DNA from: an uncultured Sutterella sp.
GTDB lineage: Bacteria > Pseudomonadota > Gammaproteobacteria > Burkholderiales > Burkholderiaceae_F
Direction: 5' to 3' (one strand)
Length of the DNA stretch: 64,000 bases
Assembly: GCF_905198475.1 (NCBI RefSeq)
Contig: NZ_CAJKCQ010000001.1
Shown: positions 2,369 through 24,437 of the stretch, piece after piece
Layout of the letters: each line of letters starts with the position of its first letter
How positions within the stretch are numbered: the first letter of the stretch is position 1
The notes under the pieces: generated by a model
Seen by the model: the letters and a program-made list of their open reading frames with translations, nothing else
Databases searched by the model: none
What the model was told of the DNA's origin: nothing
Translations under genes and position numbers: made by a program

Positions 2369-2474
2369 GTTCTTCGTTCTTGCGTCTACGGGGTCCGGAG
2401 ACCCCGGGACGCGCTCATTCAGCTTGAAGCCCGTTCAGCCTGCACGGGCGTCGGGACTTCAGGAGAAGAGGCGA

Positions 2475-3632
2475 TTAGAACGTGTGGGTGAGGCCGAGGT
2501 AGACGTTGCCGACCTTGGCCTTAGCGTCTTCATTGCCAACCTTATTGCTGTCAACCGTGGCTTCCGCATAGCCGCCGCCGACGTAAACCGTCGTGCGCTG
2601 GCTGAGCGGATAGGTGTAGCGGGCGGCGAGGCCGTAGTAGTCGGCATCAACATCCGCAACCTTGGTAGCACCGCTGTAGAGATCCTCGGCCTTGGCATCA
2701 ACGTAGTAGGCGCCGACCGTGAGTTCACCCTCGGCAACCGGAACGATCGTGCCGAGGTGGAGGCCATAGCCCTTCCAATTCTTCTCGGTCTTCAGGCCGT
2801 AATCAGCAGCGGCCGTCTTGAAATCATCAATCCCAAAGACATCCTTCTGGCCGGCAAAGTACTGGGCTTCGGCGAAGAGCTTGGCAACGCCGAAGTCGTA
2901 GTTGCCGCCGACGAAGACGAGCTGGCCATCATCCGGCTCGAAGGTGGACGTGCGGTCGAGCGTGGAGTACTTCGTCAGTTCATAGCCGACAGCGAACTGG
3001 GCGGGGCCGTATTCACCCGACAGGCCGACGGAGGCGTAGCGCTCGGCGGTGGAGCGACCTTCGACACCCTCATCCGACTTGCCGTTCGTCTTGAAGCTGT
3101 ACTGGGCGACGAGCTGCAGGCCGGCGAGGCGCGGCGAGGCGTAGGTCACCATGTTGTCGCAGCGCGAGCTGGAAGCAAAGCCCCAGACAGCGTTGTCGCC
3201 GCCGTCGAAGGCGTCGACGTAGCCGATGAGCTCGTACGTACCGGCAGCCGAAGCGATGCCGCCCATGCGGCCGAAGGCGAGTTCACCGAAGGGACCGTAG
3301 ACCGTCAGAGCCGCTTCGCGGCCGAAGAGGCGGCCACCCTGGCCAAGCGTGCCGTCGTCGGTGCTGACGGCGTTTTCGAGCTTGAAGCCGACCTTGTAGC
3401 CGTTGCCGAGGTCTTCAACGCCCTTCAGGCCGAAGCGGGAGCCGGCGTTGATGCCGGAACCCATTTCGAAGGTGTTCCGACCATCAACCGTCTTGGCGCC
3501 GTCAAAGCCCGTCACGTCGGTGTAGGTGTAGTTGAGCGCCTGGTCGACAACGCCGTAGAGCGTCACATCAGCAGCAGCGGCGGAGCCGGCGAACGCGCCG
3601 AGAACGGCGAGCGCAGCGAGAGTCTTCTTCAT
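2475..3632 (-). CDS. Gram-negative outer-membrane porin (Neisseria/Burkholderia OmpC-like family)
   Basis: Signal peptide MKKTLAALAVLGAFAGSAAAADV, alternating beta-strand pattern, Gly/Tyr-rich, C-terminal aromatic residue (..LGLTHTF). The alternative start at 3647 (MGFLKMKK) is less likely. Confidence 0.8.
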   Translation of the reverse strand: MKKTLAALAVLGAFAGSAAAADVTLYGVVDQALNYTYTDVTGFDGAKTVDGRNTFEMGSGINAGSRFGLKGVEDLGNGYKVGFKLENAVSTDDGTLGQGGRLFGREAALTVYGPFGELAFGRMGGIASAAGTYELIGYVDAFDGGDNAVWGFASSSRCDNMVTYASPRLAGLQLVAQYSFKTNGKSDEGVEGRSTAERYASVGLSGEYGPAQFAVGYELTKYSTLDRTSTFEPDDGQLVFVGGNYDFGVAKLFAEAQYFAGQKDVFGIDDFKTAAADYGLKTEKNWKGYGLHLGTIVPVAEGELTVGAYYVDAKAEDLYSGATKVADVDADYYGLAARYTYPLSQRTTVYVGGGYAEATVDSNKVGNEDAKAKVGNVYLGLTHTF

Positions 3633-8110: not shown

Positions 8111-10924
<2,814 letters not shown>

Positions 10925-14239: not shown

Positions 14240-14607
14240 GGGGGCGCCTTGGTTTCGACGGGGATGCTGACGCTGAGCGGTGCATGCCGAGGGGTAGTGA
14301 CCTCGTAAATCTCTGCTACAAAAACACAAACGCCAACAACAAGCGTTTCGCTCTCGCGGCCTAATCCCCGCGGGATGCTGCACTGATTTGTCTTTGGGTC
14401 AGGCAGGGTAAAACCTGCGGCAGCATCAAATTACAAAGTCTAGGAACGGCGAGTGTCTCCGGCGACGTTCCGAAATCAAGGGGACTGGGCAGCCGCTGGC
14501 CCGTCGATTGGCAAAACGGCTGTTGAGATTCAAATGATTCGACTACGCATGTAGATCCATCAGAAAACGGTTTCCGGACGCGGGTTCAACTCCCGCCGCC
14601 TCCACCA
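14240..14607 (+). ncRNA. ssrA: Transfer-messenger RNA (tmRNA, SsrA)
   Basis: 5' GGGGGCGCCTTGGTTTCGACGGGGATG... and 3' ...GGACGCGGGTTCAACTCCCGCCGCCTCCACCA are collinear with E. coli tmRNA. The internal tag reading frame GCC AAC AAC AAG CGT TTC GCT CTC GCG GCC TAA gives the tag ANNKRFALAA. Confidence 0.85.
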
Positions 14608-14616
14608 ATGCCTGCA

Positions 14617-14647
14617 GGCTCCGGACTTAGGTCCGGGGCCTGTTTTC
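14617..14647 (+). terminator. ssrA terminator
   Basis: GGCTCCGGAC-TTAG-GTCCGGGGCC hairpin followed by TGTTTTC, immediately after the CCA end. Confidence 0.6.
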
Positions 14648-14741
14648 ATAACTACGAAACCCGCTTCAATTCGCGCAGCATTGTTGTTTCCCATCCGGCC
14701 TAGTGCTCCATTCCTGCGCGGCCAACCCGCGCGCAACGGCT

Positions 14742-17714
14742 ATGAAGCAGCACGATCCACGCAAGGGCGCACACCAATTCATCAAAACCTGGTCCGGCAA
14801 GGGCTATGAAAAGGGGGAGAACCAACCTTTCTGGCTCTCGCTACTGAAGGACATCTTTGGTGTAGAGAATCCCGAAAATCTCCTCGTCTTTGAGCAGCCC
14901 GTCTTCAAGCGCGATGAAATTCCCGCCCGTCGTTTGGGTTTCATCGACGCCTGGATTCCCTCCTCCCGCGTGCTGATCGAACAAAAAGGCCTTGGCCACG
15001 CGCTCGACAAGACTCAGAAACAGTCGGACGGCTCGATGCTCACGCCCTTCCAACAGGGCAAGCGCTACGCCGACAACCTCACGACAAAGAACCGGCCGCG
15101 TTGGATCATCGCCTGCAACTTCGAGTCCTTCGAAATCCATGATCTCGACAATGAGGACCCGAACGCCAAGCCTGAGGTGATCCTTCTCAAGGATCTCGAG
15201 ACGGAGTACTACCGCCTCGGCTTCCTCGTTGACTCCGCCCATGACGTGGTGAAGGCGGAAACGAAGCTCTCCGTTGCCGCCGGCGAAATTGTGGGGCGCC
15301 TTTACAACGGTCTCCTCGCGCAGTACATCAACCCCGACTCCGAAGAAGTGCGCCAGAGCATCAACAAGCTCTGCGTGCGTCTCGTCTTCTGCCTCTACGC
15401 CGAAGATGCGCTGCTCTTCAAGACGAAGTCGCAGTTCCACGACTACCTCAAGGGGCTCGATCTGCGGTGCACCCGCTATGGGCTTCAGGCGCTCTTCCGC
15501 GTCCTCAACACCCCTGAAGATCAACGCGACCCGTACGACGACCCAATGCTCCTTGACTTCCCCTACGTCAACGGAGGCCTCTTCGCCGACGATGCCATCA
15601 TCATTCCGCAGCTCACGCCCGAACTGAAGGAACTGCTCCTCAGCGACGCGAGCGAGAACTTCAACTGGGCTGAGATCTCGCCCACGATCTTCGGCGCCGT
15701 CTTTGAGTCAACATTGAACCCGGACACGCGCCGCAAGGGCGGCATGCACTACACCTCGGTCGAGAACATCGAAAAGGTCATCAATCCGCTCTTCATGGAT
15801 GACCTCAACCGCGAGTTTGCCGAGATCATGCGCGGCAAACAGGCGGCCTCACGCATGCGCAGGTTGAAGGCCTTTCAGGAGAAGCTCGGCAAGCTTCGGT
15901 TCCTTGACCCGGCCTGCGGTTCGGGCAACTTCCTCACGGAGACCTACCTGCAGCTGCGGCGCCTCGAAAACAAAGTCATCTTGGAGCTCAACGCCGGCGC
16001 TGGTCAGTTCGACTTCGGCGGCGAGCACTCGCCCGTCAAGGTGCAGATCAATCAGTTCTACGGCATTGAAATCAACGACTTCGCCTGCTCCGTCGCGCAG
16101 ACGGCGCTCTGGATTGCCGAGAGCCAGATGCTCAAGGAAACCGAGGACATCATCGGCGCCGTTCTCGACTTCTTCCCGCTCAAGTCCTTCACCAACATTC
16201 GCGAAGGGAACGCCCTGCGCTTTGACTGGCGCACTCTGCTTCCTGAAGACGGATCGAACTTTACTTTCATCATGGGCAATCCACCGTTCTCGGGCGCACG
16301 ACTGATGACGGATGAAAACAAGGCGGACGTGAAGGAAACGTTCGGTTCCAACTGGGCCAATGCCGGCAACATCGACTATGTCGGCTGCTGGTTCAAGCGC
16401 GCCGTCGAGATCATGCAGGGGACGACCACGCGCACGGCCTTCGTCGCCACGAATTCCCTCTCTCAAGGCGAGCAGGTTGCGAACCTCTGGAAGCCGCTGG
16501 TCGAGCAGTACGGCGCCCACATCGACTTCGCCTATCGGACCTTCCGTTGGGACAGCGAAGCACAGGACAAGGCGCACGTGCATGTCGTGATTGAAGGGTT
16601 CAGCACGGCTGAAAACTCCAAGCCCCGCGTGCTTTTCGACGGCGCTGACATCCTTGAGGTTCCGAACATCAATGCCTACCTCCTTGATGGTCCTGACTGT
16701 TTCGTTGCAAGCCGCAGCACGCCTCTGTGTGACGTCCCGGAAATCGGTATCGGCAACCAGCCGATCGACGATGGCAACTACCTCTTCACAGAAGAAGAGA
16801 AGAATGACTTCGTGAAGAAGGAACCCCTGTCCGAAGCTTTCTTCAAGCCTTGGTACGGATCTTTTGAATTCATCAACCGCGCGCCGCGTTGGTGCCTTTG
16901 GTTGGGCGACTGTCCGGCCGCCACGCTCGCCAAGATGCCGTTGGCGAAGGCGCGCGTCGCAGCAGTTCGGCGATACCGGCTGAACAGCTCGCGTGAGGGG
17001 ACGAAGAAACTGGCCGATACGCCTCGACGCTTCCTTGTCGAAAACATGCCGTCGAGCAACTACATTCTGGTTCCCAGCGTCTCATCCGAACGACGACGCT
17101 ACGTACCGATGGGCTTCATGACGCCTGATGCGCTCACAAGCAACCTCGCGCTGCTCATCCCCAACGCTACCCTCTATCACTTCGGCATTCTCACAAGCTC
17201 CGTCCACATGGCCTGGATGCGGGCAGTTGCCGGCCGTCTAAAGAGCGACTACCGCTACTCGAAGGACATCGTCTACAACAACTTCGTCTGGCCTGAAGTG
17301 ATGGAAAAGCTCAGAGAGAAAATCGAACGGACGGCACAGAAGATTCTCGATGCCCGTGCGGCGGAGCCTGATGCATCGCTCGCCGTACTCTATGACGACG
17401 ATTCGATGCCCGACGACCTGCGTGCCGCGCACGCCGCCAACGACCGCTTGGTGCTCGAAGCCTACGGACTTTCCGGCGACTCAGATGAAGCGACGATCAC
17501 CGCGCATTTGATGAACCTCTACGTCCGAAAGGCCACAGAAGTGGATCGCCGCGACGCCGTGGAAGCTACGCTCGTCAAAATCCTCGGCAAAGGTTGCGAG
17601 GGCGTTCCTGAATGGCTCTCCGCCCTTCATGCCGATGCGCTTGCCGGGAAAATCACCCCTGAGGAACTGCTTGAGCAGGGGCGCGTTCTCAAGAAGGCTC
17701 AGAAAGCCAAGTAG
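14742..17714 (+). CDS. MmeI-family Type IIL/IIG restriction-modification enzyme (PD-ExK endonuclease fused to an N6-adenine DNA methyltransferase and target-recognition domain)
   Basis: The N-terminus aligns with the MmeI nuclease core (GFIDAWIPSSRVLIEQKGLGHALDK versus MmeI GFVDLFWPGILLIEMKSRGKDLDK; D-x-EQK). Methyltransferase motif I is FLDPACGSGNFL and motif IV is NPPF. Total length is about 990 aa. GC is visibly lower than in the flanks. An alternative GTG start is at 14703. Confidence 0.75.
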   Translation: MKQHDPRKGAHQFIKTWSGKGYEKGENQPFWLSLLKDIFGVENPENLLVFEQPVFKRDEIPARRLGFIDAWIPSSRVLIEQKGLGHALDKTQKQSDGSMLTPFQQGKRYADNLTTKNRPRWIIACNFESFEIHDLDNEDPNAKPEVILLKDLETEYYRLGFLVDSAHDVVKAETKLSVAAGEIVGRLYNGLLAQYINPDSEEVRQSINKLCVRLVFCLYAEDALLFKTKSQFHDYLKGLDLRCTRYGLQALFRVLNTPEDQRDPYDDPMLLDFPYVNGGLFADDAIIIPQLTPELKELLLSDASENFNWAEISPTIFGAVFESTLNPDTRRKGGMHYTSVENIEKVINPLFMDDLNREFAEIMRGKQAASRMRRLKAFQEKLGKLRFLDPACGSGNFLTETYLQLRRLENKVILELNAGAGQFDFGGEHSPVKVQINQFYGIEINDFACSVAQTALWIAESQMLKETEDIIGAVLDFFPLKSFTNIREGNALRFDWRTLLPEDGSNFTFIMGNPPFSGARLMTDENKADVKETFGSNWANAGNIDYVGCWFKRAVEIMQGTTTRTAFVATNSLSQGEQVANLWKPLVEQYGAHIDFAYRTFRWDSEAQDKAHVHVVIEGFSTAENSKPRVLFDGADILEVPNINAYLLDGPDCFVASRSTPLCDVPEIGIGNQPIDDGNYLFTEEEKNDFVKKEPLSEAFFKPWYGSFEFINRAPRWCLWLGDCPAATLAKMPLAKARVAAVRRYRLNSSREGTKKLADTPRRFLVENMPSSNYILVPSVSSERRRYVPMGFMTPDALTSNLALLIPNATLYHFGILTSSVHMAWMRAVAGRLKSDYRYSKDIVYNNFVWPEVMEKLREKIERTAQKILDARAAEPDASLAVLYDDDSMPDDLRAAHAANDRLVLEAYGLSGDSDEATITAHLMNLYVRKATEVDRRDAVEATLVKILGKGCEGVPEWLSALHADALAGKITPEELLEQGRVLKKAQKAK

Positions 17715-17807
17715 CCGCCGGCCGACTTTTGAAGTCTGGCCTGCCCCTCCGGACCGCCGGTTCTCCCCCCGCAGCGGTCCGGCCCCCATCGAAAGACAAA
17801 AAAACAG

Positions 17808-18404
17808 ATGATCACCTCCCGATTCATTGAGCTTCAGCCCGCCTTCGACGCCCTCGCGCTCCTCTTCCTGCAGCCCGAACGTCTCGGCGCCGCTTCGGCG
17901 CTTCCCGCCGCGGCCGAAACGATTCTGGAGGCCGCCCAGGGCGGCCCGGCGCTTCCCGCGGAACTCCTCGGGAAGCTCGAGCGCATCGCGTCGCAACAGC
18001 CCCCGAGCGACCTCGAGTTCGCGCAGGCCTATGCGCGACTCTTTCTCGGCGTCTCCGAAGAGACGATTCCGCTCTGCGAGAGCGCCTGGACGAGCGCGCA
18101 GCGCCTCAACTGCCAGGCCGCGCAGCTCGAATGCCGCCGGGCCTACGAGGAGGCGGGACTTGAACTTTCCGGGGGCTCCGTCGTTCCGGAGGACCACCTC
18201 GGGCTGATGCTCGGATTCCTCGCCGTCACGGCGCTGCGCGGCGACGAGGCCGCCGGCCTCGAGTTCGCGGCAAAGCACGCCGCGCCGATGATGGAGACCA
18301 TCGCCCGCGCCACCGCGGCGAAGGGCGCGGCCGCCGGTCCCTACGCCGACGCCGCGGCGCTCCTTGAAGGGGCGGCGGCGCTCCTCACTCCCGACGCGAA
18401 GTAA
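17808..18404 (+). CDS. TorD/DmsD-family maturation chaperone for molybdoenzymes
   Basis: About 200 aa, Ala-rich, EDHLGLMLGFLA resembles the TorD signature. Lies next to a molybdopterin oxidoreductase operon. Confidence 0.55.
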   Translation: MITSRFIELQPAFDALALLFLQPERLGAASALPAAAETILEAAQGGPALPAELLGKLERIASQQPPSDLEFAQAYARLFLGVSEETIPLCESAWTSAQRLNCQAAQLECRRAYEEAGLELSGGSVVPEDHLGLMLGFLAVTALRGDEAAGLEFAAKHAAPMMETIARATAAKGAAAGPYADAAALLEGAAALLTPDAK

Positions 18405-21687: not shown

Positions 21688-24195
21688 ATGGCAAAGGTTC
21701 TCAAGTTCACCGCCTGCGCCGCCGCAGTCGCCGTCGCGCTCTACGCCGCCGCGGGCTACGTCGGCGTGCCTTATGCGACGCGAACGGTCGTGGAGAAGAC
21801 GGCGTCCGAAATGCTCGGCCGCACCGTCACGCTCAAGGACGTCACCTTCAATCCCTGGACCTGGGTGTATGAGATCAAGGGGCTCGAGATTCCCGAGCCC
21901 GGCTCCGAGCCGCTCCTCAAGCTCGCGCTCCTGCGCATCGACGCTTCTTCGCAGACGCTCTTCAAGCTCGCTCCGGTTCTCGATGAGGTCACGATCGACG
22001 GCCTTCAGGTGAACGCCGTCATGAACGAAAAGAACAAAAAGGACTTCGAGCGGCTCACGGGCGGCTCCGGCGATGCGGGGGCGAAGTCCTCGGGGTCGTC
22101 CTCCGCAGGCTCGTCGGGGCTGCCGAAGTTCGCGCTCTACAACATCTCGCTCACCAATTCGTCCCTGCGTTATCAGGACAAGGCCGCCGGGATCGACGAG
22201 TCGGTCACCGACCTCACGGTGAAGCTGCCCTTCGTCTCGACGATGGAAAGTTCGAGCGAGAGCCTCGTGACGCCGGAGCTTTCGCTGAAGCTCAACGGCT
22301 CGCCCATCGAGGCGACGGGTTCGACGAAGCCCTTCGGCACCACGCTTGAGGCGCAGCTCAACCTCAAGATCGCCTCGCTCGACGTCGGCGCGCTCGCACG
22401 CCTCGTGCCCGCACTGCAGGGCGACAAGCTCAAAGTCGCGGGCGCCAAGCTCTCGAGCGACCTCAACTTCATCTTCCGCAATCCCACGGGCGGCAAGCCC
22501 GCGAAGATGCTCCTCTCGGGGCGCACCACGCTCACGGACGTTTCGGTGACGCACAAGGGCGCCACGCTCGTCACGCTCCCGAAAGCGGACGTGACGGTGG
22601 GCGAAGTGGACCTCGTCGGCAGGAAGGCGGTGGTGCAGAACGTCACGGTTTCCGGACTCAAGGTCCGCGCGGCGAAGACGAAGTCCGGCATCAATCTCCT
22701 CGAGGCGGTCGAATCGGTCTCGGGGAGCCCGGCGGCCAAGTCGGGCAGCGCCGAACCCGCCTCGGGCTCGAGCTCCGGCCCGGACGCCGCCTGGTCGTGG
22801 CGCGTCGCCTCCGCCTCGCTCACGAACGCCGACCTTTCCTGGTCGGACGCGACGGTGAGCCCCGCGGCGAAGCTGGGGCTCTCGAACCTCAACGTCACGG
22901 TGAAGGACCTGTCGTCTGAAAAGAACCATGCGGGATCCTTCACGGTCGCCGCGGACGCCCTCGGCGGGCACGTCGAGGCGTCGGGCACGGTCGCGCCCGC
23001 TCCGCTCGCGGTTGCCGCGGCGGTCCGCGGCTCGCGGCTCACGTTGAACGCCGCGGCGCCGTACGTGAAGGCGGCCCTCGGCGCGGACCTGCGCGCGGGG
23101 ATCGCGTTCGACGTCAAGGCGGACGTGGGGGGCGGGAGCGCCAAGGCCTCCGGGTCGGCGACCGTCTCCGACCTGCTTCTGCGCCGAGGACAGACCACGA
23201 TGGCGAGCGCGAAGACCGTCACGGTGAAGATCGCCGGCGTGGACACCGCGAAGCGCTCGGCCGATGTTTCGCTCATTTCGGTCGCGAGCCCCCTCGTGAA
23301 CGCCGTGATGACGAAGAAGGGCCTCAACTTCGCCGAGCTCGGCGGCACCTCCTCCGGCGACGGGAAGAAGGCGGAGGCGGCGAAGAGCGCCAAAGCGCAG
23401 GGCGCCGGCGCAGCGTGGAGCTGGAAGGTGGGCGAAGCCTCCGTCACGAACGGTACGCTGCGCTTGCGCGACGAATCCGTGAGGCCCGTCGCCTCGGCCG
23501 AAGTCCCGAAGCTCAACGTCGTCGTGAAGAACCTCTCCTCGGCGAAGGACAGCCTCGGCACGCTGAACCTCACGAGCGGGCTCGGCGGCGGGTCGCTCGC
23601 CGCCGCGGGCAAGGTCGGGATCTCGCCCCTTGCGGCCGACCTGGAGGTGAAGGGCTCGCAGATCGGACTCAAGCCCTTCTCGAGCCTCATGACCGCGTAC
23701 GCGGGCGTGGGCGCGAAGGGCGGCTCCATCGACTCGACGGGACGCCTCTCGCTGAAGACCGTGAAGGAGAAGACCGTCGCCGGTTGGAAGGGCGACCTTT
23801 CGCTCACCGGCCTCGACCTCACGACCGCTTCCGGCGCCGGCCTCATGAGCTGGAGGAAGGCCTCCCTCACCGGGGTGGATCTCGAGACCACCGAACCGCT
23901 CCACCTCGTCGTGACGAAGGCCGAAATCGACCAGCCCGCCGAGAAGCAGACGAAGGCCGTGCGCGAGATCGCCGGCATCGCCTCGCTCATCTCCTCGCTC
24001 ACCGGCCGGGAGAAGACCGCCGAGAAGATCGAAAAGTACTCCGGGAAGCTCTCGGGCTCGATCGTCCTTGAGAACATCCGCTACGAGAACGGCAAGTTCT
24101 CCGCCGCGGGCGTCAGTGAAGCCTCGTTGGGCGGCCTCATCCTCGAGAAGCTCTCCTCGTCGGTCGGGGCGAAGCTCAACGCCACCTCGAAGTAG
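21688..24195 (+). CDS. Large DUF748/AsmA-like periplasmic protein with an N-terminal membrane anchor
   Basis: MAKVLKFTACAAAVAVALYAAAGY TM helix, then about 800 aa of repetitive Ala/Ser/Gly/Thr/Lys-rich beta-rich sequence with repeated WSWRVASASLTN / WSWKVGEASVTN modules typical of DUF748. The assignment is tentative. Confidence 0.5.
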   Translation: MAKVLKFTACAAAVAVALYAAAGYVGVPYATRTVVEKTASEMLGRTVTLKDVTFNPWTWVYEIKGLEIPEPGSEPLLKLALLRIDASSQTLFKLAPVLDEVTIDGLQVNAVMNEKNKKDFERLTGGSGDAGAKSSGSSSAGSSGLPKFALYNISLTNSSLRYQDKAAGIDESVTDLTVKLPFVSTMESSSESLVTPELSLKLNGSPIEATGSTKPFGTTLEAQLNLKIASLDVGALARLVPALQGDKLKVAGAKLSSDLNFIFRNPTGGKPAKMLLSGRTTLTDVSVTHKGATLVTLPKADVTVGEVDLVGRKAVVQNVTVSGLKVRAAKTKSGINLLEAVESVSGSPAAKSGSAEPASGSSSGPDAAWSWRVASASLTNADLSWSDATVSPAAKLGLSNLNVTVKDLSSEKNHAGSFTVAADALGGHVEASGTVAPAPLAVAAAVRGSRLTLNAAAPYVKAALGADLRAGIAFDVKADVGGGSAKASGSATVSDLLLRRGQTTMASAKTVTVKIAGVDTAKRSADVSLISVASPLVNAVMTKKGLNFAELGGTSSGDGKKAEAAKSAKAQGAGAAWSWKVGEASVTNGTLRLRDESVRPVASAEVPKLNVVVKNLSSAKDSLGTLNLTSGLGGGSLAAAGKVGISPLAADLEVKGSQIGLKPFSSLMTAYAGVGAKGGSIDSTGRLSLKTVKEKTVAGWKGDLSLTGLDLTTASGAGLMSWRKASLTGVDLETTEPLHLVVTKAEIDQPAEKQTKAVREIAGIASLISSLTGREKTAEKIEKYSGKLSGSIVLENIRYENGKFSAAGVSEASLGGLILEKLSSSVGAKLNATSK

Positions 24196-24361: not shown

Positions 24362-24437
24362 TGGTGCCGGAGAAGAGATTTGAACTCCCGACCTTCGCAT
24401 TACGAATGCGCTGCTCTACCAGCTGAGCTACACCGGC
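24362..24437 (-). tRNA. tRNA-Thr (anticodon CGU)
   Basis: Minus-strand sequence GCCGGTGTAGCTCAGCTGGTAGAGCAGCGCATTCGTAATGCGAAGGTCGGGAGTTCAAATCTCTTCTCCGGCACCA gives a cloverleaf with anticodon loop TTCGTAA (CGT), a GTTCAAATC T-loop and an encoded CCA. Confidence 0.8.

Follow-up and report, generated by a model that had tools for sequence, protein, structure and literature searches.

A one-gene islet with a predicted MmeI-family restriction-modification enzyme next to the tmRNA gene of an uncultured gut Sutterella

The 3' ends of transfer-messenger RNA (tmRNA) genes are a hotspot for genomic and defence islands. The tmRNA gene ssrA is documented as an island integration site, for instance for the vcr islands of Dehalococcoides (PMC3146451). 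Restriction-modification (RM) enzymes of the MmeI family, in turn, consist of one polypeptide that recognizes an asymmetric site of 6-8 bp, protect the host solely through N6-methyladenine (m6A) on the top strand, and cut about 20/18 or 21/19 nt downstream, with two sites needed for efficient cleavage (PMC2731913, PMC4833311). The closest described references are MmeI itself, from Methylophilus methylotrophus (TCCRAC, cutting 20/18), and NmeAIII from Neisseria meningitidis (GCCGAG, cutting 21/19). Here, a stretch of 64 kb from an uncultured Sutterella sp. (contig NZ_CAJKCQ010000001.1; the whole stretch is called the window below) was analysed for a putative RM gene that lies between ssrA and a gene for a torD-like chaperone. 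The data are best explained by a horizontally acquired insertion of a single gene for an MmeI-family Type IIL RM enzyme that is complete and probably active; the gene probably came as the cargo of an integrative element, now decayed. We give this reading a probability of roughly 0.8.

An MmeI-family enzyme with intact catalytic residues

By every criterion that can be tested on a sequence, the 990-amino-acid (aa) protein is an MmeI-family Type IIL (Type IIG) RM enzyme. Specifically, Pfam recovers the five MmeI domains without exception, in the expected order and well above cut-off (Table 1), the Type IIG model of PADLOC (REase_MTase_IIG) covers residues 3-931 with 1089.5 bits, and the MmeI–DNA complex in PDB entry 5HR4 is matched with an E value of 2.7e-188 (query residues 5-930 against 7-902). 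The family is large, with at least 8000 database proteins passing an E value of 1e-50. Like MmeI, the window protein is a five-domain single polypeptide with a D/E/K triad, methylase motifs and a homologous target recognition domain (TRD). Unlike MmeI, it has one extra residue between the D and the E of the triad and a C-terminal tail of 60 aa. This tail is rich in A, L, E and K and has no Pfam match; of 12 homologues with 990-1008 aa that were aligned over it, 11 have it conserved, and it is absent from MmeI and from homologues of 920-934 aa. The exception among the 12, P0014, carries a low-complexity stretch rich in Lys, Glu and Ala in its place.

A first-pass annotation, made by a model from the letters of the window, had already proposed such an enzyme on the strength of an N-terminus resembling the PD-ExK nuclease core of MmeI, methyltransferase motifs I and IV and a long C-terminal TRD. 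Each of these elements was recovered, and the proposed homology is borne out by the matches to Pfam, PADLOC and 5HR4. The nuclease core GFIDAWIPSSRVLIEQKGLGHALDK lies at aa 66-90, and the catalytic residues, whose loss the annotation had named as grounds for a methyltransferase-only protein, are all present: D69, E80 and K82 align with D70, E80 and K82 of MmeI. The MmeI numbering of this alignment was validated on 19 literature residues, each of which agrees with the publications in both letter and number. The triad is, furthermore, kept in all 45 sequences whose residues were extracted (the query and 44 homologues), and its retention sets the protein apart from relatives that lack the nuclease, such as YeeA.

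The NCBI record of an identical protein, which is encoded on many contigs from human-gut metagenomes, bears the name 'DNA methyltransferase [uncultured Sutterella sp.]'. Taken at its word, this name would describe an orphan epigenetic modifier, a methyltransferase whose nuclease is silent or disabled. Members without nuclease motifs exist in the family, such as YeeA, and native family genes are often disrupted, as in NmeAIII, DraRI and ApyPI (PMC2731913); a frameshift in one group of strains, described below, would likewise part the nuclease from the methylase and TRD. Against this stand the intact triad within a whole MmeI_N domain, its retention throughout the extracted homologues, and an open reading frame (ORF) free of any indel in 24 of the 25 loci that hold it complete. 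A protein that only methylates is therefore improbable. The enzyme appears complete, with its catalytic residues intact, and is probably active, and the database name almost certainly stands for a bifunctional RM enzyme.

Weak, partial matches to models of PglX and DrmMI over the methylase and TRD parts raised the further idea of a methylase belonging to a BREX or DISARM system, an idea that is effectively refuted. The NCBIfam BREX models reach about 19 bits against cut-offs of 400-900, and DrmMI reaches 113 bits against 1089 for Type IIG in PADLOC, where DrmMI and PglX attain at most about a tenth of the Type IIG score. Partner genes are lacking, the neighbours being gph, ssrA, the torD-like gene and genes for a ferredoxin and a molybdopterin oxidoreductase. 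Model scores and neighbourhood together exclude membership in either system. The enzyme also appears self-sufficient, as the first-pass annotation had it: in gene calls and Pfam searches covering 10 kb to each side, no gene came up for a separate methylase, a specificity subunit or a defence partner.

If it acts as its relatives do, the enzyme would bind its asymmetric site and, with S-adenosylmethionine, would methylate one conserved adenine, exclusively in the top strand. Where two unmodified sites are available, it would cleave the two strands some 20/18 or 21/19 nt downstream of the site, and such cleavage would restrict incoming phage or plasmid DNA.

Foreign composition and patchy presence among relatives

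The RM gene is compositionally foreign. The guanine-plus-cytosine (GC) fraction is 0.584 for the gene and 0.587 for the islet, whereas the window averages 0.668. Nowhere in the window is GC lower over 3 kb than in the islet region (0.581; about 3.2 standard deviations below the mean, with a standard deviation of 0.027), and a sliding profile stays at 0.56-0.60 from about 14250 to 17750 before it returns to 0.69-0.71. The GC fraction at third codon positions (GC3) is 0.766 in the RM gene and 0.85-0.94 in 11 flanking genes, and its codon adaptation index, computed relative to the flanking genes, is 0.49 compared with 0.59-0.81 in the 11 neighbours. GC3 thus lies between that of the host (about 0.9) and that of homologues with 69% identity (0.63). 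The lower GC that had been estimated by eye at 55-58% is confirmed at the top of that range, and both the GC and the codon profiles depart clearly from the flanks.

Orthologous loci were found through homologues of gph, the phosphatase gene to the left of ssrA, and through contigs with exactly matching proteins. A contig scan with the gph protein as a guide to synteny was abandoned; among the matches listed it gave identities of at most 47%, none of them useful. Within the species, every contig read that has an identical gph or torD-like protein carries the RM gene at the same place. These loci share at least 99.8% nucleotide identity across ssrA and the islet, and single-nucleotide polymorphisms are as dense in the islet (2-5 per 3.2 kb) as in the flanks. 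Because islet and flanks are equally diverse, the insertion must go back at least as far as the diversity sampled within the species. The ratio of non-synonymous to synonymous change within the species yields no estimate and says nothing on selection, as only 2 synonymous and 4 non-synonymous sites vary.

Outside the species, the gene is not a fixture of the locus, and none of the refuting findings that the first-pass annotation had named was obtained. Three related Sutterella-like lineages (L042, L049-L051 and L052-L054, with gph identities of 64%, 60% and 55%) have an empty gph-ssrA-torD site within otherwise the same synteny, from rpsA-cmk-serC-gyrA through the DUF748 gene. In relatives, the interval between ssrA and the torD-like gene measures only about 20-85 bp. 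The left edge of the inserted DNA is the 3' CCA end of ssrA: across relatives, ssrA is invariant through CCACCA and divergence starts immediately beyond, and nucleotide homology to L042 ends at window position 14612, 5 nt past the ssrA end, to resume at 17832, limits that nearly coincide with the islet coordinates of the first-pass annotation. In one of the empty-site contigs, L052, the torD-like gene at 9105-10148 is called with 347 aa rather than about 195 aa. A DUF4007 gene comes next, where the genes for the ferredoxin and the molybdopterin oxidoreductase would be expected, so that the right flank is rearranged there too.

The closest sister lineage, L047, with 92% nucleotide identity over gph-ssrA, holds what may be the ruins of the same gene. 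Its ssrA is followed by 430 bp of unrelated sequence, and 2424-3299 contains a frameshifted remnant of about 250 bp, split over two frames, that corresponds to aa 168-267 with 58-69% aa identity and a GC fraction of 0.685. The remnant abuts an inverted 3' end of the torD-like gene with its terminator, an arrangement that implies a deletion and an inversion at the locus or else a chimeric contig of 3.3 kb. If the contig is not chimeric, it follows that acquisition preceded the split of the two lineages and that one of them later lost the gene to decay.

The closest homologues outside the species are 69-70% identical, and none exceeds 70% among the matches listed. Two of them at 69%, P0012 (contig L039) and P0011 (contig L040), sit beside P4-type integrases and immediately next to tRNA-Leu and tRNA-Arg, in islands of about 13 kb whose GC is lower than that of their hosts; a Toprim/DUF3631 primase accompanies P0012 and AlpA accompanies P0011. 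A search for attachment (att) sites in L039 gave, at 17578-17593 and thus where the island should end, a sequence that repeats the tRNA-Leu 3' end in 16/17 nt; its score equals the shuffle mean, and the match is no more than suggestive. Like the window protein, P0012 and P0011 have the conserved C-terminal tail, a GC below that of the host and a position beside the 3' end of a small stable-RNA gene; unlike the window locus, their islands have retained an integrase and AlpA or a primase, and their specificity residues differ at positions 1-4. Additionally, 63 viral contigs in IMG/VR carry relatives with 40-59% identity. A third close homologue, P0013 (70% identity, 934 aa, no tail; L118 8001-10805), stands alone after the hypABFCDE operon in a host with a GC of 0.67 and has no tRNA gene nearby. 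With a GC of 0.584 and a GC3 of 0.757 it is almost equal to the window gene, and it has the look of another one-gene insertion that took place independently in a comparable host.

Could the gene instead be ancestral at this locus and have been lost independently in the relatives with empty sites? L047 shows that deletion and decay do occur here. Such a history is nevertheless very improbable, given the atypical composition of the gene, the location of its nearest relatives in mobile islands of other hosts, with no listed match outside the species closer than 70%, and the three lineages with gph identities of 55-64% that are all empty, which would require at least three clean losses.

Route of arrival at ssrA

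The most economical account of how the RM gene would have reached this place is that an integrative element with tRNA or tmRNA genes as its targets brought it in, because its closest homologues sit in such islands, relatives occur on viral contigs and ssrA is a documented target. The gene probably came as cargo of an element of this kind, as its closest homologues still do; it would have arrived before the split from the nearest sister lineage, and the rest of the element would since have been deleted. Like the ssrA-integrated islands, of which those with Dehalococcoides vcr are an example, the islet consists of foreign DNA that begins at the 3' end of the single-copy tmRNA gene and varies among relatives (PMC3146451). 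Location, composition and variable presence are shared with islands of this type. Classical ssrA islands additionally have an integrase, of which the islet shows none, and directly repeat the ssrA 3' end, for which the one candidate in the islet (below) scores within the range of shuffled sequences; 'islet at ssrA' is therefore preferred to 'proven ssrA-integrated island'.

Nowhere in the window is 14 nt or more of the ssrA 3' end repeated exactly, the longest exact match being a 13-nt one at chance level inside the DUF748 gene at 22645. This agrees with the statement of the first-pass annotation that an att repeat cannot be recognized. Its description of an old or decayed integration is consistent with an islet as diverse as its flanks, with the remnant in the sister lineage and with the intermediate GC3; insertion by an ssrA-targeting integrase draws no such support, there being no integrase, as the annotation itself had noted, and no att repeat better than chance.

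The gene may, alternatively, have come in without site-specific integration directed by ssrA, through homologous recombination of core flanks after transformation or conjugation from a carrier strain, or by illegitimate insertion into a permissive gap, in which case its place beside the tmRNA gene would be incidental. The missing integrase and the lack of a significant att repeat fit such a course, as do the make-up of the islet, which is essentially one gene plus spacers of 134 and 93 bp, and the solitary 70% homologue P0013. On the other side, the left edge falls within 5 nt of the ssrA 3' end, where ssrA islands start, the two closest homologues lie in integrase islands that abut tRNA 3' ends, and ssrA is a documented integration site (PMC3146451). 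An incidental adjacency is rated as unlikely, though as a contender to be taken seriously.

Several observations weigh against the history of a decayed integrative element and an active enzyme that is preferred here. First, neither an integrase nor an excisionase nor any other mobile-element gene was found within 10 kb of the RM gene. The best gapped match to ssrA, 22/28 between 17748-17772 and ssrA 14573-14599, lies exactly at the right edge and resembles the T-arm and acceptor part of ssrA; its score of 24 is within the range of shuffled sequences (mean 17, standard deviation 2.6, maximum 32) and not significant, and it could possibly be a degenerate attR or an old terminator. In an alignment of the right edge, no two lineages agree in the intergenic sequence that follows ssrA, not even those with empty sites, and the exact boundaries of the insertion therefore cannot be reconstructed. 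The homologue P0013, solitary at a site without a tRNA gene, shows that solitary insertions of this gene family need no tRNA or tmRNA gene. Furthermore, a promoter-like site was looked for upstream of the RM gene and none was found. The source is an uncultured human-gut Sutterella, the evidence on its relatives comes throughout from metagenome assemblies rather than isolates, and the remnant in L047 is known from one metagenomic contig. Finally, in three contigs (L032 and two similar ones) a 1-nt insertion at window 15844-15845, beside a substitution, splits the ORF into products of 388 aa (nuclease and spacer) and 619 aa (methylase, TRD and C domain). Unless it is an assembly error, this split makes the gene dispensable in at least some strains, and it could represent a natural inactivation of restriction with methylation retained. 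Phase variation was considered as its cause and rejected, as the insertion lies outside any homopolymer or repeat tract.

A predicted recognition site of the CNCGAG type

The bases that the enzyme reads can be predicted in part from the recognition code of the family (PMC2731914 and PMC4833311). In MmeI, base 3 is read by E751/N773, base 4 by A774/R810 and base 6 by E806/R808 (PMC2731914; structural confirmation in PMC4833311). In this code, C is read by the pair S/N, G alone by Arg when the 774 position holds a bulky residue, and G by K/D (PMC2731914). For base 1, Arg or Lys at the position of Ala723 pairs with C:G, and for base 2, Lys645 specifies C, Met specifies A, and Lys or Arg at 642, often with Gln645, specifies G (PMC4833311).

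Compared residue by residue, the base readers of MmeI at positions 1, 2, 3, 4 and 6 are A/F/Y, Y/K, E/N, A/R and E/R, and those of the window protein are R/L/V, I/Q, S/N, L/R and K/D. Since all of them differ, the target must differ from TCCRAC. The pairs for positions 3, 4 and 6 are, in contrast, those of NmeAIII, which is also betaproteobacterial and has S761/N783, L784 and K816/D818 (PMC2731914), a comparison made by published residue numbers and not by sequence alignment. The flipped adenine at position 5 is invariant in the family, and the Leu that contacts it in MmeI, L805, is kept as L833 in the window protein. From these pairs and the kept Leu contact, a 3' half-site C-G-A(m6)-G is predicted; the 3' part of the site should thus be CGAG with a methylated A.

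The 5' half is less legible. R751, at the Ala723 position of MmeI, likely specifies C at position 1. At position 2, the pair I670/Q673 falls outside the published rules, and its base is not readable from the code. The N-terminal part of the TRD (TRD-N) reads R-L...I-Q in the window protein, the TRD-N determinants of NmeAIII being different, and many homologues have S-H...I-K instead, which is what G-C at positions 1-2 would call for. The predicted site is therefore of the type 5'-CNCGAG-3', with the qualification that family sites span 6-8 bp and the spacing between the two half-readers may vary. The expectation of the first-pass annotation that the specificity could probably be read from the sequence holds cleanly for positions 3-6, tentatively for position 1, and fails at position 2. 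Counts of CNCGAG words in the window do not help with that position: no variant deviates from expectation (z from -1.15 to +0.32), and the lack of an avoidance signal is what a self-methylating system and only 64 kb would lead one to expect.

Across the 120 best homologues (P0001-P0120), specificity residues occur in many combinations. Among proteins that are 60-70% identical, base 3 is read by E/N, K/D, R/D or S/N, base 4 by L/R, K/S, A/R or S/R, and base 6 by K/D or E/R, a pattern that reads as a natural mix-and-match of the published MmeI code and fits the engineering papers. The TRD-N combination R751, L765/V766 and I670/Q673 is found only in the cluster of the window's own species and in 0 of the other 110 proteins among these 120. 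Within the species, one variant, E752A (L037; window 16996, codon 752), adjoins R751, the predicted reader of base 1.

Significance

The window protein is an ordinary member of a large, well-understood family, and a textbook defence gene at a tmRNA hotspot opens no new question. All that is modestly new is its recognition sequence, which is probably novel, together with the clean reduction of the insert to one gene. A stronger claim, that the CNCGAG-like site is new among characterised MmeI-family enzymes and that the islet is the stable end-state of an RM gene outliving its integrative element at ssrA, is tentative and on present evidence rather doubtful. Were both parts true, the locus would inform positions 1 and 2, where the MmeI code is least understood and where the published rules do not extend to the I/Q pair seen at position 2, and would supply a clean natural example of the reduction of a defence island to a single gene. 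A literature search for Sutterella methylation motifs found no paper. The predicted motif C-N-C-G-m6A-G could, additionally, serve as a methylation tag for this uncultured gut Sutterella in the binning of long-read metagenomes.

Layout of the locus

The features of the islet and its borders are collected in Table 1. The ORF listing begins at a GTG at 14703, and the ATG at 14742 yields exactly 990 aa; it is also the start used by the genes of the closest homologues. The first-pass annotation correctly placed the ORF directly downstream of a tmRNA gene, found here by ARAGORN and Rfam. Its distance of about 130 bp after the terminator needs revision, as the ATG lies 134 bp past the ssrA 3' end and about 94 bp past the T-run.

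Table 1. Coordinates of the islet, its RM gene and the adjoining features, in window positions
Feature	Position	Strand	Basis or remark
ssrA (tmRNA), tag peptide ANNKRFALAA	14240..14607	+	ARAGORN; Rfam RF00023, 204.7 bits, full model
Lower-GC islet	14608..17807	+	Whole interval from ssrA 3' end to ATG of torD-like gene
Terminator-like hairpin and T-run 3' of ssrA	14628..14648	+	Sequence lineage-specific; each lineage with a different hairpin (alignment)
MmeI-family Type IIL (IIG) RM gene, 990 aa	14742..17714	+	ATG start
MmeI_N nuclease domain, aa 10-194	14769..15323	+	Pfam PF20464, E 2.6e-31
PD-ExK residues D69, E80, K82	14946-14948, 14979-14981, 14985-14987	+	Mapped to MmeI D70/E80/K82
MmeI helical spacer (MmeI_hel), aa 206-281	15357..15584	+	Pfam PF20465, E 5.8e-18
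Gamma-class N6-adenine methyltransferase domain (MmeI_Mtase), aa 367-632	15840..16637	+	Pfam PF20473, E 7.3e-85
Methylase motif I DPACGSGNFL, aa 389-398	15906-15935	+	
Methylase motif IV NPPF, aa 513-516	16278-16289	+	
Target recognition domain (MmeI_TRD), aa 649-852	16686..17297	+	Pfam PF20466, E 2.6e-72
Predicted specificity residues of the TRD: R751/L765/V766 (position 1), I670/Q673 (2), S779/N801 (3), L802/R838 (4), K834/D836 (6)			Mapped to MmeI numbering
MmeI C-terminal domain (MmeI_C), aa 855-928	17304..17525	+	Pfam PF20467, E 5.8e-15
60-aa C-terminal tail, aa 931-990	17532..17711	+	Alignment to 5HR4 stops at query residue 930
Right-junction hairpin (CCGGACCGC...GCGGTCCGG)	17748..17783	+	Read from sequence
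torD/DmsD-like chaperone gene	17808..18404	+	Pfam Nitrate_red_del on called gene; 67% aa identity to L042 9164-9706

The torD-like gene is the first core gene to the right of the islet and directly adjoins ssrA in relatives. The wider neighbourhood comprises gyrA and genes for an amidohydrolase, an OmpA-like protein and a HAD phosphatase (gph), then ssrA, the torD-like chaperone gene, genes for a 4Fe-4S protein, a molybdopterin oxidoreductase and a DUF748 protein, tsaE and amiC. A tRNA-Thr gene (CGT) lies on the minus strand at 24362-24437, between the DUF748 gene and tsaE, and just after it an ORF of 51 aa without a Pfam match is called in all same-species contigs.

In another related Sutterella-like lineage, all contigs stop 180 bp after ssrA (L044 9121-9300, L045 7316-7495). 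These breaks were considered as a sign of another island, a reading that was rejected in favour of a multicopy group II intron. The tail of the contigs starts with GTGCGCCC right after the T-run of the ssrA terminator and is 86% identical to L118 10845-11026, the sequence that follows the MmeI-homologue gene of L118 and that matches the Rfam family group-II-D1D4-3 with 37.5 bits (gathering score 32). The assemblies of these contigs thus seem to be broken by a group II intron, present in multiple copies, whose insertion sites lie just behind intrinsic terminators.

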